DNA of 40,752 nt from a virus (Duplodnaviria; Caudoviricetes): the IMG/VR virus record IMGVR_UViG_3300025782_000027, positions 1 through 40,752 of that record. The stretch is one strand, 5' to 3'. The position numbers were made by a program, and so were the translations under genes. Shown here piece by piece: positions 12,132 to 36,515 of this stretch. Within the stretch, counting starts at the first letter, position 1. Every line of letters begins with the position of its first letter. The notes under the pieces were generated by a model that searched no databases, was not told where the DNA came from, and worked only from the letters and a program-made list of their open reading frames with translations.

Positions 12132-13181
12132 ATGCCAACAACATATGCAATTCCTAATGGTGCTACCGCATTTGCCGCTACTACTTATACGGGTACTGGC
12201 ACTACACAAAGTATTTTAAATAGTGCTAACACAACAACGGGAGTATCTTTTCAACCTGATTTTGTGTGGGCCAAATCTAGAAGCGTTTCAAATAATCATG
12301 GCTTATTTGATTCTGTTCGTGGCGTTGGAAATGCCCTTTACTCTAACGGCACTTTTGCAGAGGGAAGTAACGGTACTACTTTAACTTCATTCAATTCAAA
12401 TGGATATAGCGTTGGAAGCGATTCTGCGGCAATTATTAATGTAAGTGGCGTAACCTATGTAGGTTGGCAATGGAAAGCAGGAGGAACATCATCCTCTAAT
12501 ACTAACGGCTCTATAACATCTACTGTAAGTGTTAATGCTACGGCAGGATTTAGTGTTGTTACTTATACGGGTACAGGTGCTAATGCGACTGTAGGACATG
12601 GGTTGGGTGTAGCGCCTAGCATGATGATTGTGAAAGTTAGATCAACAACTAACGATTGGGTTGTTTATCACTCAGGTCTTGCAAATCCCGCAACTAACGT
12701 GATGATTTTGGATACGACAGCGGCAGTATCCACGGGTGATTTGCAATGGAATAGCACCTCTCCTACGAGTTCTGTATTTAGCATAGGTACTAAAGCAGGT
12801 AGTAATCAATCAGGACAAACATTTGTTGCCTACTGTTGGGCACAAATACCAGGATATAGCAAATTTGGTAGTTATACAGGCAATGGTTCTACAGATGGGC
12901 CATTTGTGTTCACCAATTTTAGACCACGTTGGGTCATGATAAAAAGAACAGACACTACTGCAAATTGGATTATTTGGGACACATCAAGAGACACTTACAA
13001 CGTAACGCAAAACGATTTATTCCCAAATAGTTCAACCGCTGAAGTACAAGGAAATTACATCGATATTTTGTCTAACGGATTTAAAAACCGAGATACAAGC
13101 GTTACAACAAACGCATCTGGCGGCACATACATCTACGCTTGTTTTGCCGAGACCGCTTTTAAGTTTGCGAATGCGAGGTGA
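12132..13181 (+). CDS. Fibre-associated beta-repeat protein
   Basis: YTGTG, FQPDFVWAKSR, AGFSVVTYTG, GHGLG and FRPRWVMIK repeats typical of phage LamG/SPRY fibre distal parts. Confidence 0.7.
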   Translation: MPTTYAIPNGATAFAATTYTGTGTTQSILNSANTTTGVSFQPDFVWAKSRSVSNNHGLFDSVRGVGNALYSNGTFAEGSNGTTLTSFNSNGYSVGSDSAAIINVSGVTYVGWQWKAGGTSSSNTNGSITSTVSVNATAGFSVVTYTGTGANATVGHGLGVAPSMMIVKVRSTTNDWVVYHSGLANPATNVMILDTTAAVSTGDLQWNSTSPTSSVFSIGTKAGSNQSGQTFVAYCWAQIPGYSKFGSYTGNGSTDGPFVFTNFRPRWVMIKRTDTTANWIIWDTSRDTYNVTQNDLFPNSSTAEVQGNYIDILSNGFKNRDTSVTTNASGGTYIYACFAETAFKFANAR

Positions 13182-13182
13182 T

Positions 13183-13812
13183 GTGAGAATTGCGGTTTAC
13201 ACTATCACCAATAAAACCGATGGCAAAAAATATGTCGGTATATCCAATAATTTGGATAGGAGATGGCGTGACCACAAAAAAGCAGATGGGTGGTGCATTG
13301 CTTTGCATAATGCCATAAAAAAATATGGCGTTGACAATTTTGATTTTTGTCATATAGCCGATGCTTATTCTTGGGAAGATGCTTGTTTGATTGAAAAATT
13401 GCTTATCAAAGAGATGAACACAAAATCCCCAAATGGATACAACCTGACTTATGGAGGCGATGGGACGGTTGGCTTTAAACATTCAGAAGAAGAATGTCAA
13501 CGTAGAAGCGAACGATGCCCAACAAGAAATCCAGAGGTTGCCAAAATTGTTGCTGACAAACTTCGAGGACGTAAAAGACCTCAAACAAGTGGAGAAAAAA
13601 ACGCAATGTTTGGCAGAATTGGAAGAAGTTCTCACATGCTTAAACACATCGTAATTGCCAAAAATATTAAGAATGGCAATACAATGATTTTGGCTGGAGC
13701 CAAAGAAATTGAAGCCGCTGGGTTTTGTAGGGCGCATGTTTATTCATGCGCTAAAAAAATACGAAAAACTCACAAAAATCACACATTTGAATTTCAAGGA
13801 GAAATATTATGA
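13183..13812 (+). mobile_element. Free-standing GIY-YIG homing endonuclease with NUMOD-type DNA-binding repeats
   Basis: AVYTITN...KKYVGIS (GIY-YIG variant), RRW..H, GYNLT.GGDG, GFKHSEE, GEKNAMFG; probable GTG start at 13183 after GAGGTG. Confidence 0.85.
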
Positions 13813-15276: not shown

Positions 15277-15673
15277 AATAGAAGCCCGTACAAGGTCTTT
15301 TGTTATCGTTGTGGTAACACTGATACTATTTTTCATAGTAGTTACCCTAATATATAGCGTAATGTTTGTGTCTCAGCCAATCAAGGCTATGGCTCCAATT
15401 GATCAAGCATTTACCAAGATGCTTAATGACATTGTGCTTCTTATCGTAGGAGGCATAGGCGGCATTATGACTAAAGGCTTAACAAATGAGGCTACCGCTA
15501 TGATGAACAACGTTAAATCTGGCAAAGATGCTTATGTAGCTCCTCCTGTTAAAGAAATTGTTATGGGTCCAGCCACGGGTTGGACAGCGCCCCCAGCGCC
15601 TACCAGCGGTCCTGTTTTAGAGGCAGATCATGAGCGTGAGCGTATGGCACAAGCGAGGGCAGAAAATGTTTAG
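15212..15673 (+). CDS. Two-TM membrane protein, holin candidate
   Basis: GGAG RBS 7 nt before TTG at 15212; two hydrophobic segments; in the lysis cassette. Confidence 0.55.
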   Translation: MKELLLLLLTPNPNQERLTADEIEARTRSFVIVVVTLILFFIVVTLIYSVMFVSQPIKAMAPIDQAFTKMLNDIVLLIVGGIGGIMTKGLTNEATAMMNNVKSGKDAYVAPPVKEIVMGPATGWTAPPAPTSGPVLEADHERERMAQARAENV

Positions 15674-16139
15674 TTTATTTAATCCCTGGGTTATTATTGG
15701 AGCTATTGCAACTTTTATAGGAGTGTACTTTTATGGACATCATGCAGGCTATCAACAACGTGTTGACGAAGATCAAGCAGAAATTATCAGACTTAATGGC
15801 GAAGCTCGCGCAAAAGAAGCAGAGTTAAACCAGAAAATTGCAACCGCAACGACTGCTCTAAGAAAGGCGAAAGATGATATTAAAACCCAGCAATCTAGTC
15901 TTAATGCTCGCGCTGACTCTGGCGAGTTGCGGTTACCTCAAACCTCCTGTGGTGTATCAGCCAATTCAAGTACCGCCTCTCAGCCTGGAAATTCAACCAA
16001 TGAATCCGAATCTGAGCGACAGACTGTCAAAGAGCTTATCGCCATCGCAACAGACGGCGACACAGCCATCCTCTCCCTCAACGCCTGTATCCAGCAATAC
16101 AACAGCGTCAGAGAAACGGTAAACAAGGGGGTCAAATGA
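15666..16139 (+). CDS. Rz: Rz-like inner-membrane spanin
   Basis: N-terminal TM, coiled coil, GELRL motif, LNACI near the C-terminus; hosts an embedded lipoprotein ORF. Confidence 0.8.
   Translation: MFSLFNPWVIIGAIATFIGVYFYGHHAGYQQRVDEDQAEIIRLNGEARAKEAELNQKIATATTALRKAKDDIKTQQSSLNARADSGELRLPQTSCGVSANSSTASQPGNSTNESESERQTVKELIAIATDGDTAILSLNACIQQYNSVRETVNKGVK
15874..16122 (+). CDS. Rz1: Rz1-like outer-membrane spanin embedded in Rz
   Basis: +1 frame inside Rz; lipobox LAS-C; Pro-rich mature part. Confidence 0.7.
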   Translation: MILKPSNLVLMLALTLASCGYLKPPVVYQPIQVPPLSLEIQPMNPNLSDRLSKSLSPSQQTATQPSSPSTPVSSNTTASEKR

Positions 16140-25187: not shown

Positions 25188-28100
25188 ATGGATGTAAGAA
25201 TGCCAGATGGGACGCTTGTCAGAGGCGTTCCTGATGATATTACCCAAACTGAATTATTGAGAAGATACTCATTATTCAAAGCACCTTCTGAAGCTACGCC
25301 TGAAGAAAGTAGAAAATATGTTAATAACCAATTAGGATTAGCAGGTTTAGCCAATGCAGGCAGAGGTCCTATCAATCCCAATGAAGAAGACATACAGGGA
25401 ATCATTGCTCAAAATCAACAACCAGCAGTGCAACAAGTTGCACCGCCTGCACCTCCTGTAGCGCAAGCTCCAATAGTCCCAACCCCAGTGCAACAAGTTG
25501 CACCCCCAGAGCCACAACAGGAACAGCCTTGGTATTCTGGTATTGCCAAGTTTGGTCAAGATCAACAAAAGAAACGTGATCAACTTGCCAAATCCGCAGT
25601 TCCATTGGCACAAGACGTTGGAGCCGCTATTGCCGCTACTCCTTTGGCATTTGAGGCTGGAGCTCAAGCGTTATCTCAGGGAGCAGATCCTAGTGCTTTG
25701 ACAGGAGATGCTTGGAAACACGACTTTATTGCTGAACAACGTGCACTGGCCAAAAAGAATGCCGAAAATCCAGAGCTTAAAAACGAATATCTATTAGGTG
25801 TTGACAGAGCCAAGATTAGAAATTTGCCACAGAATGCGGCATTTTCTGTATTGTCTATGGGTTCAGGATTGGCAGGTGCGGCAGTTGGATTTGTTACTCC
25901 ACTTCCATTGGCAACCGAAGCAGGCACGATGGCGGCATCTGGTGCGGCGGCTTACCGCATGGATACCAACGGATTCTTACGAGACATAAGAGAAAAGCTA
26001 GACGATGCTTCTATAAAGGCAACAGGCAAACCATTGACCGATGAGCAATGGCTTAAAACAGCTCAGGAATACCAAGGACTTGTCAGAGAGCACGGCGCAT
26101 GGGAGGCATTGCCAGAGGCGCTAGGAAACGTGTTTGGTAACAAATTGGCTGGGGTTATATTCAAGGAAGCAGGCCAAGGACTTATGGGCGTGCTCAAGTC
26201 TTTTGGTGCTGGTGCGTTAGAGCTTGTAAATGAGCTTGGCACAGAAACCATCACACAAATTGGTCAGCACAATACTGAACTGGCCGCTGGAGTCAATGAC
26301 GATCCTAACGCTAAACCAAGATCATTTACCAATCCTGATGATATTTGGAAGTCTGCTAAAGAAGTAGCGCCAGATGTTCTTTTATTGACTGGTGCAATGA
26401 GCGGTGGAGCTCACGTTGCTGGTTCTATTTATAACTCAACAGATTACGCTAAGACTAAAGAACTTGCAAAAGAATTAAACGCAAAAGATTTCTTAGATAC
26501 AAAAACGCCTGAAGGTTTATTGGCATTACAAAAAGCCGCAGATCAACAGTTTGCACTTGGTCCTGGTACAAGTAACAATGTAATTCCACAAGTTACAACT
26601 AGAACGCCTGGTATTAATCCTAATCAACCGCCAGAGCCTCCAGAAGAAGAGCAAGCACCTGAAGTACCTACTGCTACTTCTACTCCTCCTGCCGCGCCTA
26701 CCACCCGCGCTAAAACTCTTCCTGTTGATGAAGATACGCAGGCTATGTTGGATGAGCTACAAGGAAAGCCAGCAAAACCTAAAACTCCTACTGCTGATAT
26801 TAACGAAAAGAATCTTAAAGGCCGTTTTGATGGAATTTTTAGCGGCAAAGACTTTTCTTCTGGTGAAGAAGGTGAGGCTTGGTATCATCCAAAAACAAAT
26901 AAATTAACTACTGAAGGGGTTGATGGAACACCAGTTCAACACTATGCAGGAGATAAAACTGCTACTGGACTGACAAATGTAACTCCAATTAACACGCCAG
27001 AAGAGGCAAAAGCGGCAATTGATGCTGGCAAATCTTTTGCTACTGTACAAGAAGGAACTGATCCTTTTAAACCTGTAGAGACAAAACCTGTAAAGACAAA
27101 GCCTTCAGGTAAAAAACCAGTTCAGAATAAAGACAATCCAATACAAACCTTTGATGCGGGAAACAATACGGAAGTTAGAGTATTTCCTAATGACAAAGGA
27201 TATATAGCAAACTTTTACGATAAAGATTCTGGTAATTACATAGGCGGGAAAATATTTCCAACTAATAATTTTGGCGATCAAGCATTGCCAAAAGCATTGG
27301 AATTTGCGCAAGTCGAATCTGACAAGTCCAAGAAAATGGCTGGTGAAGCGCCCCCAGAAAATGTTACTACCCGTATTCGAGATCAAATAAAAAATTCTGA
27401 AATTGGTCAAAATCAACAAGTTACTCCTGAAGTGCAACAAGTTGCACCTACTGAAGTTCAAGCTAACCCAGCTTCTACAGTTCAACCATCTGCTGACGTT
27501 CCCTTAGACGAGAAAGCCAAGGCTAAACAAGACTTGGAAGATGCGTTAGGAGATTTGTCTTTACTCATGGGTAAAGGCGGTCGATTAAACATTGTTCCTG
27601 AAGACGAACAAAAGTTAATGCCTATTCTTACAAAGCTGATGGATGCGGCTTTTAGAATGGGTTATATCAAGTTTAAAGAAGCGGCCAAGTTTGTAATGGA
27701 TATGATCCGCTCCAAGATTGGTAAAGATGTTGCAGACCAAGTGTCATTGGATCACTTGCAGGGCGCTTACATCGGCATGGCTGGAAAGTATCAGGACAAA
27801 GGTGCAGATAATAAGAAAGATGTTATCTCTGTTGAGTCTTTGCACGAAATCCACAATGAAGCGCCAACAACTACAGACGTAGATATTAATACTCCGCAAG
27901 GACAATTTCACGTTGCCACACAGATTGGCGCATTCTTTCTTGAAGGCGGTAAGTTTGAGAACATTAATCAAGCCAGAGCAAAAATCGAGGAAATCACAGG
28001 ACAGAAGATACCGCCAGGAACTAATGAGGCTAAATCAGCAGATGAAGCCATCGAGGTCGGCGTTGTTCTTGCGGCTAGACATATCGTAGGACAAGGCGGT

Positions 28101-31100
28101 AAACCAGATCAAATATACGATCAACTGGTAAACCTATATGGTAGACAGCCTAATTTGTCTGTCAGAAGTTCTGAAAGTGTATTGCATCAGGCTTATTCAA
28201 CACCAGCGCCCCTAGCTTACATTGCATCGAGGTTAGCAGGCATTAATCCAAACACAAAAGTTTACGAGCCCAGTGCTGGTAACGGTATGCTTTTGATTGG
28301 AGCTAATCAAGAAAACATTTATGCAAACGAGTTGCAACCTGGTCGTGCGGCTATTCTTGAGATGGTATTACCCAATGCCAATGTTACTGATTTCAATGCC
28401 GCTAAAACAATCCCAGGTGGAGCTGTTGATACAGGAACGATGGATGTTGTTATTGCCAATCCACCGTTTGGCGTAGTCAAAGACAAAGAAGGCAAGCCAA
28501 TTACGCACAATGCTCATTGGTATGACACTAGAGAAATAGACCATGCCATAGCATTTAGGTCTTTGCGTACCATGAAAGACAATGGTAAAGCCGTGCTTAT
28601 TGTTGGCGGCGTTATGGGCAAGACCGATGAAGCTCGCGTAGAGGATTATCGAGGTAAAGCTAAGCGAGATTTTTATGCAGAGCTTTATAGAAGATACAAC
28701 GTAGTAGATCACTTTACAGTTAGTGGAAATCTATATACGAAACAAGGTGCATCGTATCCAGTAGACGTTATTGTCATTGATGGCGTTAGGAATGGAGCGC
28801 CTTTGGTTAATGAAAAAGGTGAAATACAAACTGCAAGAGCATTGCCTGCCTTTGACTTGCCAAAGGTATACACAACATACGGTCAGTTAAAGGAGAAATT
28901 AGATGAAAACACCTTGGTATCCAGAGGGAATGAGCGCCCCAGTGGAGTTGACAGCGGTATACGCGCTGAAGGAAACGTTAACGAACAAGGAGTGGCTGGA
29001 GGCGTTAGCGGACAGGGTGTCCAACCTAGCACAACAGGAGGAGAAACCCCTGGAGGCGGCGAACAGGGCGTGTCAGAAAATGGACCTTCCACAGGTGGAC
29101 AACCCGAATCAACTGGGGCAGTCGCTGGTAACGCACAACCTAAACCTGGTAACGCACCTGAACCTGGCGCAGGAGGAGAAGCAGTTCCCAGCAAAGGTGA
29201 AGTCAAACCTACAGGCGGCAAAGGCACTGAGGGAAACAAGCCTGGAGGATTGGGTGGAGTCAGCGTTGTCTCTGGTGAACGCATCGGATCTGGCCTAAAA
29301 GACCGAGCTGGACAAGAAACAGAAACAGAAAACCAAGTTGGTTACGCACCGCACTCTAATGCCTCATCTGTAGGCACATTGGTTCCTAAAGCGATGGCAC
29401 AGGCTATTGAGAACTCATTAGCTAGTTTAGAACAGCAATACGGAAACATTGATGATTTTGTATCTGAAAACCTTGAAATGGATCCAGAGACGCTTAGAGA
29501 GTTATTCTCTGCTGAACAAATAGATGCAATTGCTTTGGCTATCAAGAATGCCGAAGAGGGTAAAGGGTTCATTATTGGAGATCAAACGGGTGTTGGTAAA
29601 GGCCGTGTTGTTGCGGCAATGATTAAGTACGCTTTGATCAAAGACAAAATACCAATCTTTGTAACTGAGAAACCTAATCTTTATTCAGACATGATTAGAG
29701 ATTTGGACGATATTGGTATGACAGATAAATTGGGATTAGACACAGCTAAGCCCAAAATTCTTATTACAAATGCCAGTGAAAAGATTCCTTATACATTACT
29801 CAGAAATGTAAAAGGTGAAATTACTGAAAACAATTTAACTTTAAAAGCGCCCAAGTCTGGTCCTGCATTAGATGGTCTTTTGAAGGATATGCAAAGGGAT
29901 GAAAGTCTTGGCGATTACAAAGTAATTTTTACAACATATAGTCAATTACAAACCGTCAAGGGCAAAGAAACTGAGCGTCAGCGTTTTATAAAAAACTTTG
30001 GTGCTGGTAATTACATGATCTTTGATGAGAGTCACAACGCTGGTGGGGCTGGTGAAACTCAAGCAAGATCAAAAGAACAAAGAGAAAGAGCTAAAGAAGG
30101 CAAGAGCTTGGTGGAGGGAAGAGCCGCTTTTGTCCGCAACTTGGTGCAAGGTGCTTACGGTACATTCTTCTCATCTGCAACATATGCAAAGCGTCCAGAT
30201 GTTATGGATTTGTATTCCAGCACTGATATGAGTCTTGCTGTAGATAAGTTGGCAGACCTGGCAGACGCAATTAAAAACGGTGGTATTCCTATGCAACAGA
30301 CCGTTGCTAAGATGCTGACCGAAGTTGGTCAATACATTAGACGTGAGCGTACATTTGCAGGCGTTTCTTACGATACAAAAGAAACCAAAGTAGATAAACA
30401 AACGGCTGAAAACATGGCATCGTCCATGAGCCAGGTGCTTGCATTCTCAAGAGCCAAAGAAAGTGCGGTTAAAGATTTACAGAAATCCCTTGATAAACAA
30501 GGCGGTAGAGCAAGCATCGAGGGCGAGAAAACCCAAGTACAGAGCGCAAACTTTGGCGCAATCATGCACAACTTGATTGACCAAATGCTTTTATCGCTAA
30601 AGGCAAAGGATTCAGTCAACCATGCAATTGAGCGCTTAAAGGCTGGCGAGAAAGTGGTGATGACCGTATCTAATACGATGGGTTCATTCCTGCAAACTTA
30701 TGCAGACGATATGGGTCTAAACGTAGGGGATGACGTTGACCTATCATTTAAGGACTTGTACTTGCGCTACCTTGAAAAACAGCGCATGGTTACGATCAAA
30801 ACTCCAGACGGCAAGAAAAAGCAATATCGTTTAACCGATAACGATCTTGGCGCTGGACTTACAAAGCAATTTGAAGACATTAAAAAGTTTATTGAAGGAG
30901 CTGGATTTGGTTCTGCACCAATATCTCCTATTGATTATTTACATAATGAACTTAAAAAAGCAGGATTTAAAACTGAAGAAATTACAGGCCGTACTGTTAC
31001 TTTAGACTATGCCAATGGCAAGCCTAAGTTAGCAAGCAGAACTGCAAATATCAAGCAACGTGTTAATGCAGTTAAAGCATTTAACAATGGAACGGCTGAC

Positions 31101-34100
31101 GTTATTATTCTTAACCAAGCTGGTTCAACAGGATTGTCTTTACACGCTTCTAGCAAGTTTAAAGACCAGCGCAAGCGCCATATGATCATTGTTCAGGCTG
31201 AAAAAAATATTGATACGCATATGCAAATGTTGGGGCGCGTACACCGTACAGGTCAAATCATGCCTCCAGCATACTCCCAGATGATGGCTGATATTCCTGC
31301 TGAGATGCGTCCAGCGGCTGTGTTACTTAAGAAAATGGCATCACTCAATGCCAATACAACTGCATCTCGCAAGTCTGCCGTATCTGCGGAAGGTGCTGTA
31401 GACTTTATCAATGATTACGGAGGTCAAGTTGCACAAGAGTATTTAAGGGATAACCCTGATATACACGAAGCAATTGGCGGTAAGAAGATCGTTGATTTGA
31501 CAGAAGACCCAACAGAAGGGACAGAAGATGATATTCGTAGGCTCACAGGATATATACCAATATTGCCAATCAAGCAACAAGAAGAAGTCTACAAAGACAT
31601 TATCGAGCGATACAACGACTTGTTGCAACGAGAAGAAAGTATGGGTACTAATAAGCTCGAAGCCAAAGCACATGACCTGGATGCCAAGACACTTTCATCT
31701 AAGCCTATTACCGAAGACAAAGGATCAAGTTCTGCCTTTGCTCAACCAGCAAACATGGAAAAGGTTGATGTTAAACGCACAATAAAACCTTACTCTAAAG
31801 CAGAGGTGCAAGAACAGATTGATGAGAACTTGGGTGGCAAGGAGCCAGAAGAGAAAGCCAAGGAAATGTTTGCCAGTTTAACTCCTAGAGCTAGTGAGTT
31901 TGGTAGGCAAAGATTGGCAGAGCTTGCAGAAAGCGGCGCTGATCCTACGAAGATTGAAGAAGTCAAAGGACAGATGAATCTTCAATACGGGAACATTAGA
32001 AGTATTTTGACTACTTATCCTATTGGCACGCCATTAATTCTTAAAAGTAAGAACGGTACGCTTATTTCTGGCGTTGTAACTAACGTAGAAAACAAGGGTA
32101 AGACTAAGAATCCATTGGCTGGTTCTGATTGGAAGATGCAAGTTGCGCTTGCTAACGGCGATGCAAAGAGCATTTCAATCAACTTCTCCCAGGTCAACAG
32201 CGTGTATGAGCTCAGGCAAGAGTCTGAAGTGCCGTGGCATAACCCTGAGACAGACAAGTACGAACATATCCCTATGATGGATTTGTTTGACAAGAGCGCA
32301 ACTGTTAGGCGTGAGAAACGTTGGATGGTAACTGGCAACTTGTTGGCGGGCTTTGCGGCTGTCAACAACATGGGTCAGATCATGTCCTACACCAAGGACG
32401 ATGGCACAACAGGCCAGGGTATATTAATGCCCCGCACGTTTGACTTTGAGAAAGAAGAGAAGAGAGCCCCAGTTAAGCTTAACACTTTGCAGAAGGTGCA
32501 AGTATTTTTTGATGAATTTCAAAACGGAATTGTTCAAACCGAAGATGGCTCATTAAAAATATCTAAGCGTGGTGAAAGATACCAATTTATTACTTCAAAA
32601 TCAAAGAGAGAAGGTGGCCAATATTATTTAGATTTAGGACTGACAAATTTTATTACTTCAAAATCAAAGAGAGAAGGTGGCCAATATTATTTAGATTTAG
32701 GACTGACAAATTTTACTGGCACTTTCCATTCGTCTGGTCAACAAATGAATGCAGTCATCTATGACCAAGAAAAAGGAAGAGATGCAATTAAATATATTTT
32801 GCACGATATGCAACTGGGATTGGTTGCGGGCAATTACAAAGATGAAGCTAGAGCACTCTTTGCACCCAAGGAAGAGTTCAAGCCGCCTTTGAGTAACTTG
32901 AGTCCTATCAACAACTTTATAGGTGACAGAGAGCAAAACATCAAAGAGTTGCAGGCCGCTAAACTTAAGAAAGCCGCACTCTTTAAAAAGTTTGCTGAAG
33001 GAAAGGCTGGGTTAGTAGAGCAAGAATCAGCTAATTTGATTAATGCCTGGGTGCGTGCATTACAAGAAACAATCTCGGCTACCAAGCCAGAGAAGAAAAG
33101 CGCTAAAGATTTCTTTGTAAAAGCAACCAAAGACTGGGGCGAAGGAAAGATCAGCGATTCTGTTTACTCAACCATAAAAACTTTGTATGAAAAGTATCCT
33201 TTTGTTCTTGAAGGACTGTCATTGTCTATCAATAAGGGCAAGGAAGACAAATCAGCGGCGGGTGAGTTTGAGCCTATTCAACGAGTCATAAACTTATTTA
33301 AGGGCACTCATGGCGTTACCGATTCAGTAACTATCCGTCACGAACTTACGCACTCATTAGAACAAATGATGGATAAGGATGCGTCTAAGTCTTTGGTTAA
33401 AGAATGGGGTATACAAGTCAAAGCCAAGATGAAATCTGACAAGACCAAAGAAGGAAAAGCATTCTTTAAGGCTTTAACAGATTTCTATGCTGATCCATCT
33501 TTAGAACAATACAACGCATTAATTGCGGCTTTGCCTGACCAATCCTATTACCAGTATGTTAACCCGTCCGAATATTGGGCTGTTAATGCTGAGCAACTAT
33601 TGGCTAAAAAGCTAGGTAGTGGCTGGGATAGATTCAAGTTAGCAATTAGAAAGTTATATGAAGGGCTTAAATCTCTCGTTGGCGCAACCAATCAATATGC
33701 TTTGCATAAAGTGTTTGATGACATTATGAGTGCAAAAGGCACTCGTATGACGAATAGTGCTTTACGGGATTATGTTGACGCTAGTACGATGGCGCTTCAG
33801 AACAAAAACTTCAGGAACTTTAAAGGAGCTCCAGCGCCCAAAGCAACATGGGATGTATCTGAGCCGTTTAAAGAAGGTGATTGGGAGCACAGACTTGTAG
33901 ATAAACATCTTGATACCAAACAAATAGTTAAAGATATTAATAACCAAGTTGGACAAATACAAGATGCTTGGGACCCATATCTTAAGTTAACTACGATGCC
34001 AGGTCGTAAGGCTGATCAGGTTAACAAGTTCTTAAAAGAAGAGGGCAAACCTTTAATTAAGAAAATGCACGACTTGGGCGTGACTGTTGAAGAGTTTGAA

Positions 34101-36515
34101 GAGTACTTGCACAACCGTCATGCAGAAGAGTACAACAATCTGATTGCATCTCGCAATGCCGCTTTGCCTGATGGTGGTTCTGGTATTGACACCAAAGATG
34201 CGCATGATTACTTAAATAATTTGCCTGCTGATAAGAAGAAAAAGTATCAGGACTTGGCTAAAGATATAGACAACATCGTTAAAGAAACGCAAGACCTATT
34301 GGTAGCAAGCGGTACTGAAAAGGCTGAGACTATCCAGGGCTGGCGCGATAAGATGCCCTACTATGTCCCACTCAACAGGGATGAGGAGGAGCTAGACTTT
34401 GCTGGAAATTCTGTAAAAGGATTTGGCAAGGGCATTAGTACTGGCGGGGCATTTACCAGGGCGGGTACAGGATCAACCAAGACTGTTGTTGATATTTTGA
34501 ATAATATCTTCCTCCAGCGTGAGCGTGCAATCAACAGGGCTGAGAATGCTCGCGTTGGTAAGGCGCTTATTGGTTTGGCACTACAAGCACCCAATACGGA
34601 TTTCTGGTTGCCTATTAATCCAAGAGCCATCCGCAATAAGAAAAAGCTGTATCAGAACCTGATTGATATGGGTTTAACGCAACAAGATGCAGATAACTTT
34701 ATCAAAGAGCCTACTGTAGCCAGCATAGACAAGCTGACAGGCCAGGTTCAATATAGAGTCAATCCAGTACTCAGAGGGTCTAAGAACGTTATTACAGTAC
34801 GCGTAAACGGCGAAGACTGGTATGTGTTCTTTAACCCTGGTAATGAGCGTGCTATGCGTATGGCAGAAGCGCTTAAGAACATGGATAGCAGTTCGGTGGC
34901 TGAAGTGCTTAGCAGGGTTGCAGAGGTAACTCGCACAATGGCGGCAATGAATACGCAGTACAACCCGCTGTTTGGTCCTTGGAACTTATTGCGTGATTAC
35001 ACAGAAGCCAGTATTACGCTTGGTTCAACTCCAATTGCAGGCAAAAACGAAGAGCTTAGAAAAGGCGTTTTACCTGCAATGCGTGCCATTTACAGAATAG
35101 GCAGAGAAAAAGGAGCCACAACTCCTGAAATGCAAGCATGGATGGATTTATTTGATAAATACAAAGAGGCTGGTGGTCTGACAGGATTCCGTCAACAGTT
35201 CAGCGGATCAAATAAGAGAGAAGCTATTGTTGATCGAGAGCTTGCAGTATTAGATAAAAGCAATGTACGCAAAGTAACTAGCAGTGTTATGGACTGGCTA
35301 TCAGACTATAACGAAGCGCTTGAAAACGCTGTACGTTTGTCGGCATTCAAAGTTGCTTTAGATCAAGGCATTAGCGAGGAAAGAGCCGCCGAGATTGGTA
35401 AAGAAATAACTGTTAACTTTGATCGTAAGGGTCAATGGTCTGCAAACTTTGCGGCGTTGTTTGCGTTCTTTAACGGTAGCGTACAAGGCACTGCAAAGAT
35501 GGCCAGGGTCATGATCGAAAAAGAAAATGGCAAAACAAAACTCACCAAGTTGGGAGCAAAGATTGTTGCTGGCGGTGTGTTCTTGGGTGTTATGCAAGCT
35601 ATTGTTTTGAAGATGGCTGGGTTTGATGAAGATGAGCCGCCAGAGTATTTGAAGAACAAGAGCCTTATTATTCCAATTGGTGGTGGTAAATATTTAAATC
35701 CCCCACTGCCACTAGGTTACAGTGTGTTCCCAAGTGTTGGGCGCATCATTGCTGAATATATGTTGTCGGGCGGTAAAGACCCTGCTAAGCATATTATTAG
35801 TATTATGAGTACTATTACAGATGCGTTTAATCCATTGGGTGGTGGTGGCTTTATCCAAAACTTTAGTCCAACCGTGGTAGACCCATTGTTTGGCTTATAC
35901 GAAAACAAAGATGCGTTTGGAAGGCCAATATCTAAGCCTATGAATGAAATGAAGCCTACACCTGGGTATGAGCGTAATCGTGAATCGGCCAGCGCATTCA
36001 GTAAAGGTCTTTCATATGCGTTGAACTATATCAGCGGTGGCGGTAAATACGGCATCGGTATGGTTAGCCCAACAGCGGATCAGCTTGATTATTTAATGGG
36101 TCAATACGCAGGCGGTGTTGGACGTGAGGTGATGAAGACCGTGGACTTGGCATCTATACCATTTAAAGATGAGCCAGTCCCGTCTTACAGGATTCCTATT
36201 GTTGGAAAACTTTACGGTGAATCAAAATCAGATGCGGCAGTACAAGATAAGTTCTATAAGAATATTATCCAAATGTCCAAGTATGAGGATGTAATCAACC
36301 GTATGCAAACACATAACGCCGATCCTGAAATCTTCTTTACTAAGAATCCTAAAGCCAGATTCTATGAAGAGGCTAACAAGTATGAGAATGAAGTTAAGAA
36401 ACTTGCTATTGAAAGAAAACAGTTGATTATGAACAAGGCAAGCAAGGAAGAGCTAAAAGCCAATCAAATGCAAAAGATTGAATTGATGAAAGAATTTAAC
36501 CAACAAGTTAGGTAA
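25188..36515 (+). CDS. Giant polyvalent protein (DarB-like): N6-adenine MTase, Strawberry-notch SF2 helicase, zincin-like HExxH, LPD38-like C-terminus
   Basis: EPSAGNG (~28266) and NPPF (~28458); GDQTGVGKGR (~29577), DESH (~30024), SAT, AGSTGLSLHA and QMLGRVHRTGQ; HELTH (~33339); TVNFDRKG...FFNGSVQG...NKDAFGRPI. Confidence 0.85.
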   Translation: MDVRMPDGTLVRGVPDDITQTELLRRYSLFKAPSEATPEESRKYVNNQLGLAGLANAGRGPINPNEEDIQGIIAQNQQPAVQQVAPPAPPVAQAPIVPTPVQQVAPPEPQQEQPWYSGIAKFGQDQQKKRDQLAKSAVPLAQDVGAAIAATPLAFEAGAQALSQGADPSALTGDAWKHDFIAEQRALAKKNAENPELKNEYLLGVDRAKIRNLPQNAAFSVLSMGSGLAGAAVGFVTPLPLATEAGTMAASGAAAYRMDTNGFLRDIREKLDDASIKATGKPLTDEQWLKTAQEYQGLVREHGAWEALPEALGNVFGNKLAGVIFKEAGQGLMGVLKSFGAGALELVNELGTETITQIGQHNTELAAGVNDDPNAKPRSFTNPDDIWKSAKEVAPDVLLLTGAMSGGAHVAGSIYNSTDYAKTKELAKELNAKDFLDTKTPEGLLALQKAADQQFALGPGTSNNVIPQVTTRTPGINPNQPPEPPEEEQAPEVPTATSTPPAAPTTRAKTLPVDEDTQAMLDELQGKPAKPKTPTADINEKNLKGRFDGIFSGKDFSSGEEGEAWYHPKTNKLTTEGVDGTPVQHYAGDKTATGLTNVTPINTPEEAKAAIDAGKSFATVQEGTDPFKPVETKPVKTKPSGKKPVQNKDNPIQTFDAGNNTEVRVFPNDKGYIANFYDKDSGNYIGGKIFPTNNFGDQALPKALEFAQVESDKSKKMAGEAPPENVTTRIRDQIKNSEIGQNQQVTPEVQQVAPTEVQANPASTVQPSADVPLDEKAKAKQDLEDALGDLSLLMGKGGRLNIVPEDEQKLMPILTKLMDAAFRMGYIKFKEAAKFVMDMIRSKIGKDVADQVSLDHLQGAYIGMAGKYQDKGADNKKDVISVESLHEIHNEAPTTTDVDINTPQGQFHVATQIGAFFLEGGKFENINQARAKIEEITGQKIPPGTNEAKSADEAIEVGVVLAARHIVGQGGKPDQIYDQLVNLYGRQPNLSVRSSESVLHQAYSTPAPLAYIASRLAGINPNTKVYEPSAGNGMLLIGANQENIYANELQPGRAAILEMVLPNANVTDFNAAKTIPGGAVDTGTMDVVIANPPFGVVKDKEGKPITHNAHWYDTREIDHAIAFRSLRTMKDNGKAVLIVGGVMGKTDEARVEDYRGKAKRDFYAELYRRYNVVDHFTVSGNLYTKQGASYPVDVIVIDGVRNGAPLVNEKGEIQTARALPAFDLPKVYTTYGQLKEKLDENTLVSRGNERPSGVDSGIRAEGNVNEQGVAGGVSGQGVQPSTTGGETPGGGEQGVSENGPSTGGQPESTGAVAGNAQPKPGNAPEPGAGGEAVPSKGEVKPTGGKGTEGNKPGGLGGVSVVSGERIGSGLKDRAGQETETENQVGYAPHSNASSVGTLVPKAMAQAIENSLASLEQQYGNIDDFVSENLEMDPETLRELFSAEQIDAIALAIKNAEEGKGFIIGDQTGVGKGRVVAAMIKYALIKDKIPIFVTEKPNLYSDMIRDLDDIGMTDKLGLDTAKPKILITNASEKIPYTLLRNVKGEITENNLTLKAPKSGPALDGLLKDMQRDESLGDYKVIFTTYSQLQTVKGKETERQRFIKNFGAGNYMIFDESHNAGGAGETQARSKEQRERAKEGKSLVEGRAAFVRNLVQGAYGTFFSSATYAKRPDVMDLYSSTDMSLAVDKLADLADAIKNGGIPMQQTVAKMLTEVGQYIRRERTFAGVSYDTKETKVDKQTAENMASSMSQVLAFSRAKESAVKDLQKSLDKQGGRASIEGEKTQVQSANFGAIMHNLIDQMLLSLKAKDSVNHAIERLKAGEKVVMTVSNTMGSFLQTYADDMGLNVGDDVDLSFKDLYLRYLEKQRMVTIKTPDGKKKQYRLTDNDLGAGLTKQFEDIKKFIEGAGFGSAPISPIDYLHNELKKAGFKTEEITGRTVTLDYANGKPKLASRTANIKQRVNAVKAFNNGTADVIILNQAGSTGLSLHASSKFKDQRKRHMIIVQAEKNIDTHMQMLGRVHRTGQIMPPAYSQMMADIPAEMRPAAVLLKKMASLNANTTASRKSAVSAEGAVDFINDYGGQVAQEYLRDNPDIHEAIGGKKIVDLTEDPTEGTEDDIRRLTGYIPILPIKQQEEVYKDIIERYNDLLQREESMGTNKLEAKAHDLDAKTLSSKPITEDKGSSSAFAQPANMEKVDVKRTIKPYSKAEVQEQIDENLGGKEPEEKAKEMFASLTPRASEFGRQRLAELAESGADPTKIEEVKGQMNLQYGNIRSILTTYPIGTPLILKSKNGTLISGVVTNVENKGKTKNPLAGSDWKMQVALANGDAKSISINFSQVNSVYELRQESEVPWHNPETDKYEHIPMMDLFDKSATVRREKRWMVTGNLLAGFAAVNNMGQIMSYTKDDGTTGQGILMPRTFDFEKEEKRAPVKLNTLQKVQVFFDEFQNGIVQTEDGSLKISKRGERYQFITSKSKREGGQYYLDLGLTNFITSKSKREGGQYYLDLGLTNFTGTFHSSGQQMNAVIYDQEKGRDAIKYILHDMQLGLVAGNYKDEARALFAPKEEFKPPLSNLSPINNFIGDREQNIKELQAAKLKKAALFKKFAEGKAGLVEQESANLINAWVRALQETISATKPEKKSAKDFFVKATKDWGEGKISDSVYSTIKTLYEKYPFVLEGLSLSINKGKEDKSAAGEFEPIQRVINLFKGTHGVTDSVTIRHELTHSLEQMMDKDASKSLVKEWGIQVKAKMKSDKTKEGKAFFKALTDFYADPSLEQYNALIAALPDQSYYQYVNPSEYWAVNAEQLLAKKLGSGWDRFKLAIRKLYEGLKSLVGATNQYALHKVFDDIMSAKGTRMTNSALRDYVDASTMALQNKNFRNFKGAPAPKATWDVSEPFKEGDWEHRLVDKHLDTKQIVKDINNQVGQIQDAWDPYLKLTTMPGRKADQVNKFLKEEGKPLIKKMHDLGVTVEEFEEYLHNRHAEEYNNLIASRNAALPDGGSGIDTKDAHDYLNNLPADKKKKYQDLAKDIDNIVKETQDLLVASGTEKAETIQGWRDKMPYYVPLNRDEEELDFAGNSVKGFGKGISTGGAFTRAGTGSTKTVVDILNNIFLQRERAINRAENARVGKALIGLALQAPNTDFWLPINPRAIRNKKKLYQNLIDMGLTQQDADNFIKEPTVASIDKLTGQVQYRVNPVLRGSKNVITVRVNGEDWYVFFNPGNERAMRMAEALKNMDSSSVAEVLSRVAEVTRTMAAMNTQYNPLFGPWNLLRDYTEASITLGSTPIAGKNEELRKGVLPAMRAIYRIGREKGATTPEMQAWMDLFDKYKEAGGLTGFRQQFSGSNKREAIVDRELAVLDKSNVRKVTSSVMDWLSDYNEALENAVRLSAFKVALDQGISEERAAEIGKEITVNFDRKGQWSANFAALFAFFNGSVQGTAKMARVMIEKENGKTKLTKLGAKIVAGGVFLGVMQAIVLKMAGFDEDEPPEYLKNKSLIIPIGGGKYLNPPLPLGYSVFPSVGRIIAEYMLSGGKDPAKHIISIMSTITDAFNPLGGGGFIQNFSPTVVDPLFGLYENKDAFGRPISKPMNEMKPTPGYERNRESASAFSKGLSYALNYISGGGKYGIGMVSPTADQLDYLMGQYAGGVGREVMKTVDLASIPFKDEPVPSYRIPIVGKLYGESKSDAAVQDKFYKNIIQMSKYEDVINRMQTHNADPEIFFTKNPKARFYEEANKYENEVKKLAIERKQLIMNKASKEELKANQMQKIELMKEFNQQVR
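25428..25443. repeat. 16-bp palindrome, perfect copy
   Basis: Read directly from the sequence. Confidence 0.95.
25488..25503. repeat. 16-bp palindrome, perfect copy, 60 bp after the previous one
   Basis: Read directly from the sequence. Confidence 0.95.
27432..27447. repeat. 16-bp palindrome, perfect copy
   Basis: Read directly from the sequence. Confidence 0.95.
28903..29298 (+). CDS. Overprinted 131-aa gene nested out of frame in the giant gene
   Basis: AAGGAG ends 7 nt before the ATG; amphipathic helical product; coincides with a Gly-rich linker in the host frame. Confidence 0.65.
   Translation: MKTPWYPEGMSAPVELTAVYALKETLTNKEWLEALADRVSNLAQQEEKPLEAANRACQKMDLPQVDNPNQLGQSLVTHNLNLVTHLNLAQEEKQFPAKVKSNLQAAKALRETSLEDWVESALSLVNASDLA
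32586..32711 (+). repeat. Perfect 63-bp in-frame tandem duplication
   Basis: FITSKSKREGGQYYLDLGLTN encoded twice with identical DNA. Confidence 0.95.

Follow-up and report, generated by a model that had tools for sequence, protein, structure and literature searches.

In Rz/Rz1, a spanin gene is embedded out of frame and both frames encode parts of one lysis complex, and in DNA-mimic inhibitors of the Ocr/ArdA type an acidic surface, spaced like the phosphates of DNA, binds a DNA-acting enzyme. The beta chain of M.EcoHK31I, as reported in PMC2836561, supplies motif IX of a split methyltransferase (MTase) and is needed for activity, and ShiLan is a homing HNH endonuclease encoded out of frame in actinophage methylases (PMC11855218). 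Polyvalent proteins, including the P1 DarB methylase-helicase dyad, have been described as delivered with the DNA (PMC5512222); the terms 'linker', 'overlap' and 'low complexity' do not occur in the main text of that paper. P4-like satellites are documented as having anti-phage hotspots (PMC9122126).

The window analysed here, the whole 40,752 nt of a linear virus record with a completeness of 63%, has virion, lysis and ejection-type genes in its upstream part and, after a gene with a match to the PHROG 'DNA ejection protein', a giant gene (Table 1) with Pfam matches to N6_Mtase, AAA_34, Helicase_C_4 and LPD38. With an adenine MTase, a SF2 helicase and an LPD domain in one large polypeptide, the product is a polyvalent protein, and the association of an adenine MTase, a SF2 helicase and LPD38 is like that of the proteins described in PMC5512222. 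Unlike P1 DarB, the helicase is of the Strawberry-notch type, and darB has no nested homologue. Comparison of related sequences leaves very little doubt that the linker of this methylase-helicase gene contains, in the +1 frame, a real and conserved nested gene. As in Rz/Rz1, a small gene is fully embedded, out of frame, within a larger phage gene, but the nested protein is unrelated in sequence to lysis proteins. It is acidic, with a median net charge of -9, and in this may resemble the Ocr/ArdA mimics. As in M.EcoHK31I alpha/beta (PMC2836561), a small protein is encoded wholly in another frame of a DNA MTase gene and has its own internal start; here, however, the gene occupies the interdomain linker behind an adenine MTase whose core motifs are its own, and free copies of it exist as well. 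As described for ShiLan (PMC11855218), the methylase frame is open and loop-like and the out-of-frame ORF encodes the folded protein, here a predicted one, whereas the nested protein has no nuclease signature and, in the close relatives, the +1 frame is open at 71 of 71 loci with no empty alleles. Copies that occur free are surrounded, as in the P4-like hotspots reported in PMC9122126, by a cargo of nucleases and small genes that varies among elements with an integrase, AlpA and a primase; here, though, the cargo gene has its counterpart within a phage's own giant gene.

Table 1. Features of the giant gene and of the gene nested within it, in coordinates of the window
Feature	Coordinates	Strand	Remarks
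Giant polyvalent protein gene	25188..36515	+	3775 aa; N6-MTase, Strawberry-notch SF2 helicase, HExxH motif, LPD38
Adenine MTase region	28143..28901	+	~aa 986-1238 of the giant protein, limits approximate; STP at 1004, EPSAGNG at 1027, NPPF at 1091
Shine-Dalgarno (SD) AAGGAG	28890..28895	+	giant frame reads Lys-Glu
TAG in the +1 frame	28900..28902	+	abuts the nested ATG; argues against frameshift entry from the MTase
G/E/V/S/P-rich linker	28902..29297	+	aa 1239-1370; open throughout, sequence poorly conserved
Nested gene	28903..29298	+	131 aa, +1 frame relative to the giant gene, whose codons 1239-1371 it covers; acidic product, predicted globular
Strawberry-notch helicase lobes	29496..31448	+	AAA_34, aa 1437-1740; Helicase_C_4, aa 1930-2087
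LPD38 domain	35631..36203	+	aa 3482-3672; Pfam match

The ORF was first reported in an earlier note, made from the letters of the window, and its description is exact, with AAGGAG separated by 7 nt from the ATG at 28903 and the protein sequence as quoted. The G/P/E/S-rich linker that it saw in the giant frame is likewise apparent from the composition of the interval (G36/E13/V13/S12/P12). The length of the ORF, by itself, is weak evidence because, of 5,000 synonymous recodings of the giant protein, 20% yield a stop-free +1 run of at least 131 codons at some place in the gene. The probability that exactly this interval is stop-free by chance is ~0.014, and an SD and ATG opening an out-of-frame ORF of at least 131 codons anywhere in the gene was obtained in 1.4% of 3,000 trials. 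No sigma-70-like site that could provide an internal promoter was found on the + strand from 28300 to 29500, and there is no stable RNA structure at the nested start (z 0.55). From the window alone, the case for a nested gene is moderate, and we regard the comparison with related sequences as the decisive evidence.

A search with the helicase as query returned 75 viral loci with 42-100% identity, 4 of which lack a flank. The 71 used, which include one identical to the window, contain 61 unique loci. Both frames can be read across the start of the linker at all 71 loci: the giant frame is uninterrupted through the linker in every one, and the covering +1 run extends for 93-190 codons. An in-register ATG is present at all loci except L074 (70/71), and the SD core at 60 of the 61 unique loci. 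The gene therefore appears to be separately initiated, as the earlier note had proposed, and the stops and loss of the ribosome binding site that it expected in relatives if the proposal were wrong are not seen, apart from the one locus without the SD core. Where the giant frame has the Lys-Glu pair that bears the SD, the pair is encoded as AAG-GAG at 49 of 51 unique loci, with 19.4 expected; 67 of 588 other Lys-Glu pairs are encoded in this way. The nested products of 58 loci form a close family of 128-154 aa, the product of L073 is divergent (133 aa), and 11 of the 71 loci have short nested ORFs of 89-99 aa, 10 of them unique, of which only 3 score above all 520 shuffles. At seven loci (L065-L068, L071, L073 and L206), the spacer between MTase and helicase is longer, with the nested ORF beginning at the end of the MTase and the extra sequence following it.

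Selection differs between the two frames. Based on an alignment of the nested protein and 50 unique core DNAs, which give 1,225 non-independent pairs, dN/dS in the nested frame is 0.22, 0.31, 0.33, 0.42, 0.45 and 0.58 with rising divergence, against 1.11-1.63 for the giant frame in the same DNA, and the suggestion that the +1 frame is the one carrying the constraint is thus substantiated. In the 50 paired rows, 8 columns of the 131 in the nested protein are invariant, with Trp, Pro, Asn and Leu among the invariant residues, and 29 are near-invariant; the giant frame of the same DNA has 0 invariant and 6 near-invariant columns of 132. The giant frame too is actively kept open across the linker, as the median probability of its staying open with selection on the nested protein alone is 6e-6 (61 unique loci). 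The median probability of an open +1 frame, given each giant linker, is 0.19. Open reading in both frames, conserved start signals and purifying selection on the inner frame are together the features expected of an embedded gene.

The nested sequence might instead have been joined to the MTase by frameshifting. A stop abuts the nested ATG at 45 of the 61 unique loci and is within 10 codons upstream of it at 54, and a slippery heptamer (X XXY YYZ) was found in the last 16 codons at none of the 61 loci. A frameshift fusion was therefore rejected, and a separate small protein fits better because the stop abuts the ATG and the heptamer is absent. Other ORFs that overlap the giant gene were also evaluated. 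The +1 ORFs at 31528 and 30019 were rejected as shadows because nearly all relatives interrupt them (45 of 45 for one ORF, 37 of 38 for the other), as was an antisense ORF of 133 aa that is open in only 37 of 69. A single close relative was available for comparison of the +1 ORFs at 26584 and 27883.

The nested product is predicted to fold by itself and to be mainly helical, as the earlier note had surmised. The AlphaFold2 model, obtained with 48 sequences, has seven helices besides a small beta portion (pLDDT 93.9, pTM 0.87). There was no match for the nested protein in a Pfam scan at E 0.01, with nuclease and MTase families included, only scattered weak matches and no family in a PHROG scan of 48 members, no match for its profile among PDB sequences, and nothing at E 0.001 or better when Foldseek was used to compare the model with the PDB and BFVD. 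The best row of the wide VIA comparison has Z 3.0 and rmsd 5.5 with 85 aligned; these fold comparisons do not imply a novel fold. The best ESM Atlas matches, at 0.85, are to unnamed clusters. No HNH motif is present in the conserved columns of the nested alignment; with no N-terminal hydrophobic signal in that alignment and a host gene that is not Rz, the protein is not a Rz1-type spanin. It appears, from these searches, to be a protein of no listed family embedded in a known type of host gene. The family is widespread, with 209 representatives at 50% identity from a profile search of 1.84 billion proteins; selection specific to the frame is clear, and gene callers miss the embedded members. 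With tblastn, the nested protein had no match in GenBank phages, the query P0076 had none in plasmids, and neither P0076 nor P0046 had one in viral contigs. No description of the nested gene was found in the literature covered, mainly papers outside subscription journals.

The position of the nested gene, at the end of the MTase, is the same in phages and in a cyanobacterial plasmid. Chroococcidiopsis plasmid pB has a nested homologue of 146 aa at this place (41.5 bits, top shuffle 11.0), and the record annotates just the Strawberry-notch gene there, which bears out the prediction that standard annotation would miss the nested gene. The plasmid is typed as non-mobilizable and its nested protein, in tblastn, matches its own plasmid alone. 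The viral locus L206 also has a nested homologue (65 bits). In all, eight distant MTase/Strawberry-notch genes were inspected: two have clear nested homologues, one has a similar-looking ORF, and the five from two Acinetobacter, Pseudomonas, Xanthomonas and Agrobacterium have none. The similar-looking ORF, in Bacteroides phage BS-TP4 (PQ571277, L198:4731-5090), is an unannotated, acidic +1 ORF of 115-119 aa in the same linker, alike by eye with a score not above shuffles; as BS-TP4 is a cultured phage, it could provide an experimental system. P1 darB has no nested homologue, and BLASTP aligned nothing in it significantly with the giant protein. Codons 647-823 of darB (L213), ahead of the helicase Walker A motif, are a 177-codon stop-free +1 run with no SD-ATG and no similarity to the family (gene-wide P 0.026) that is probably a shadow. 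Such enzymes can exist without a nested gene, because five of the eight distant genes and darB lack a homologue. The small gene and the enzyme are therefore genetically locked, in the words of the earlier note, only in part, given the distant genes that lack it and the 24 loci at which the domain is free of any giant gene. The small gene may have been overprinted on the linker or, alternatively, been swallowed by an MTase-helicase fusion. Criteria for judging an inner frame to be younger than the outer were taken from PMC8227390, and codon usage points both ways: the window favours the giant frame, but of the 61 loci, 22 by RSCU and 39 by codon frequency give the higher score to the nested frame.

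Free copies of the domain were located with a degenerate DNA pattern that identified 45 viral and 70 metagenome loci; with L080, 116 loci were sorted. In 89 (45 viral, 44 metagenome) the domain is nested, in one it is frameshifted beside the MTase, three have no profile match and 23 are free. All 45 viral matches are nested at the one site, with none free in a viral contig. The 28 free matches are in 23 loci that have no giant gene nearby, and genome G451 (L210) brings these to 24; the former giant frame has 3-20 stops in 22 free metagenome loci. At one short metagenome contig (L149), the MTase sequence runs into the nested frame, and the presence of frameshifts within the MTase suggests sequencing error. 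Five free loci have tandem pairs, and at L134, L145, L178 and L183 a basic paralogue (net charge +4 to +9) is second after an acidic copy. The domain is also fused to T5orf172/GIY-YIG, to ankyrin, to a tandem copy and to N-terminal segments that look hydrophobic by eye. A C-terminal fusion domain has a predicted YbjN-like fold (pLDDT 85); its best Foldseek rows are all of the YbjN family at E 1.1e-3, just short of the cut-off, and the ESM Atlas gave no usable match. This YbjN-like domain and the nested domain are encoded by adjacent genes in L153:4366-5365 and L169:4908-5907, and are fused in L187 and L188.

Neighbours of the free copies include genes for a tyrosine integrase, AlpA, a VapE or Toprim primase, HNH, MrcB-N/NOV_C, T5orf172 and Imm_superinfect. 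Satellite markers supported by Pfam were recognized at four of the free loci only (L080, L153, L169 and L210), with AlpA and VapE at L153 and an integrase at L169 (tyrosine) and L080; the others, for the most part short contigs from metagenomes, had too little sequence or no such match. Piscinibacter defluvii has an island that contains an integrase, a type IIG restriction-modification gene and a gene for a GIY-YIG protein with the domain at its end. In G451 it ends a 313-aa gene within an element that has an integrase, an AlpA-like gene (below the cut-off) and a Toprim+DUF3987 primase and adjoins chromosomal MerR and IHF-type genes; an integrase, an AlpA-type regulator and a primase in a small integrated element are the gene content expected of a satellite. 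The old giant frame is open across the G451 domain (P 0.0013), the nested start Met is kept and, past the nested stop, the giant frame reads SGERVQSGLTER, where the window reads SGERIGSGLKDR. The old giant frame being open, the domain in G451 seems to have been captured recently from a nested gene. The other free copies presumably originated in the same way, a direction that has to be inferred because the trees are not reliably rooted. The MTase and helicase parts of the giant profile have no match in the P. defluvii and G451 genomes. Free copies are rare in genomes, at 1 of 401 and 2 of 401 searched with the seed genome counted, and PADLOC, applied to the protein that consists of the domain alone and to the free fusions scanned, had no match for the domain. 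With dN/dS of 0.07-0.31 in 27 pairs of >75% identity, and two more pairs that are purely synonymous, the free copies are under purifying selection. They do not form one clade (p-AU 0.009) in a quick tree of 42 of the 61 rows from which the long branches L073, L206 and L200 and near-duplicates were excluded. These observations provide evidence of repeated capture of the nested gene by satellite-like elements, and the free copies constitute a natural experiment in which the small protein functions apart from the frame that hides it.

In pairs that are not independent, divergence of the nested protein tracks the N-terminal MTase half (Spearman 0.79, partial 0.58) more closely than it does either adjacent segment (0.14 and -0.07). 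In four pairs of loci, L012/L014, L030/L032, L022/L044 and L043/L044, MTase modules of ~70% identity have been exchanged under nested proteins that are at least 95% identical, which suggests swapping of specificity between close phages, and helicase segments have likewise been swapped under near-identical nested proteins. The co-divergence is only a hint because MTase and helicase segments are swapped in the same data. Inter-protein mutual information has no clear cluster, with ~31 effective sequences and so little power, and a predicted complex with giant aa 925-1765 (MTase, linker and first helicase lobe), based on paired 50-row alignments, scored 0.00, but as its controls were unfolded too, it speaks neither for nor against binding.

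Tentatively, we favour a role for the nested protein as cognate inhibitor or sheath of the MTase-helicase, reused by satellites in the form of an orphan inhibitor or decoy. The small acidic product would bind the methylase-helicase module and hold the enzyme inactive in the cell that produces it. Both proteins would be translated from one late mRNA; the giant protein would then be packaged and ejected with the DNA while its small partner stayed behind, so that the enzyme became active only in the newly infected cell, and embedding would tie enzyme and partner together. Satellites would have taken up the small gene on more than one occasion. Their copy, whether single, doubled or joined to a nuclease, YbjN-like or membrane module, could act as an orphan inhibitor or decoy sensor of the giant protein that belongs to a helper phage or an incoming one. 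Such an inhibitor accounts for the fixed position, the acidity and the satellites that keep and diversify the domain with no giant gene of their own. Several observations count against it. The exchange of MTase modules under near-identical nested proteins loosens a one-to-one pairing, covariation between the proteins forms no clear cluster, most of the distant genes and darB have no nested homologue, the free copies could have a host protein as their target and one free subfamily is basic rather than acidic. The rarity of free copies in genomes and the restriction of satellite markers to four loci also count against it. The wider proposal, that in phages and plasmids the gene for the injected methylase-helicase conceals an inhibitor of that same enzyme and that satellites have repeatedly excised it for defence, either as an orphan inhibitor that disarms an injected anti-restriction enzyme or as a nuclease- or membrane-fused decoy that fires when the giant protein arrives, is somewhat unlikely. 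If correct, the nested gene would be a direct handle on producer-cell control of an injected polyvalent methylase-helicase, and the free copies suggest a way, open to testing, in which cells could be defended against enzymes that phages inject.

Two other roles merit consideration, both improbable and to the same degree. The nested protein might serve as a chaperone or an adaptor for loading, maintaining the giant protein in soluble form and passing it to the capsid or transfer machine, with satellites copying it to divert or block this delivery. The giant gene does follow ejection-protein-like genes, the two products would, by position, share an mRNA and one free family is fused to the domain predicted to resemble YbjN and type III chaperones; a homologue is, however, nested in a plasmid typed as non-mobilizable, and relatives exist that manage with no nested gene. 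It might also be an independent factor for counter-defence or superinfection exclusion, directed at a protein of the host or of a rival element and parked in a tolerant linker. Purifying selection on free copies where the giant gene was not found is consistent with this, as are the fusions to ankyrin, GIY-YIG and predicted membrane segments (by eye), the free copy that adjoins an Imm_superinfect gene and, by analogy with DNA mimics, the acidity; such independence is difficult to reconcile with viral matches that are, without exception, nested at one site, and with a position kept from phages to a cyanobacterial plasmid. There is a precedent in M.EcoHK31I (PMC2836561) for an MTase subunit encoded in another frame, and co-divergence with the N-terminal half of the MTase would suit an activating subunit like that beta chain, but the giant MTase has its own STP, EPSAGNG and NPPF motifs, relatives do without the nested gene and free copies persist with no MTase, so that we consider this role decidedly unlikely.

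A selfish insertion, comparable to the out-of-frame homing endonuclease ShiLan in a phage methylase, would have the same layout of an open, loop-like host frame and a real out-of-frame protein (PMC11855218), and presence among distant relatives is indeed patchy. There is, however, no Pfam nuclease match and no HNH motif in the alignment, and the gene is present in 70 of the 71 close relatives with no empty allele; this reading is largely refuted and we assign it a very low probability. That the ORF is a shadow, left open by chance because a Gly/Pro-rich linker is poor in Leu, Ile, Val and Met, would agree with the median probability of an open +1 frame and with the frequency of such long runs in recodings, but is refuted by the frame-specific dN/dS, the fixation of the SD and ATG codons and free copies in which the other frame is closed by stops, to which the invariant Trp, Pro, Asn and Leu residues and the confidently predicted fold can be added. 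The probability that we leave to it is negligible, and the cognate inhibitor or sheath described above is the reading that we retain.

Inspection of the window revealed further features. The 3775-aa giant protein contains zero cysteine, and HELTH (HExxH), at aa 2718, is possibly part of a zincin-like peptidase domain. An exact 63-nt tandem duplication (21 aa) at 32586-32711 in the giant gene is missing from all 61 motif-carrying loci, among them L001, whose sequence close to the nested gene does not differ otherwise, and is likely an assembly artefact or strain variant. A GIY-YIG/homing endonuclease-like gene is located at 13144-13812 amid tail genes. At 15874-16122, an 82-aa lipoprotein-like ORF (LASC) is embedded in a Rz-like spanin gene (15630-16139), and the two are a probable Rz/Rz1 pair.
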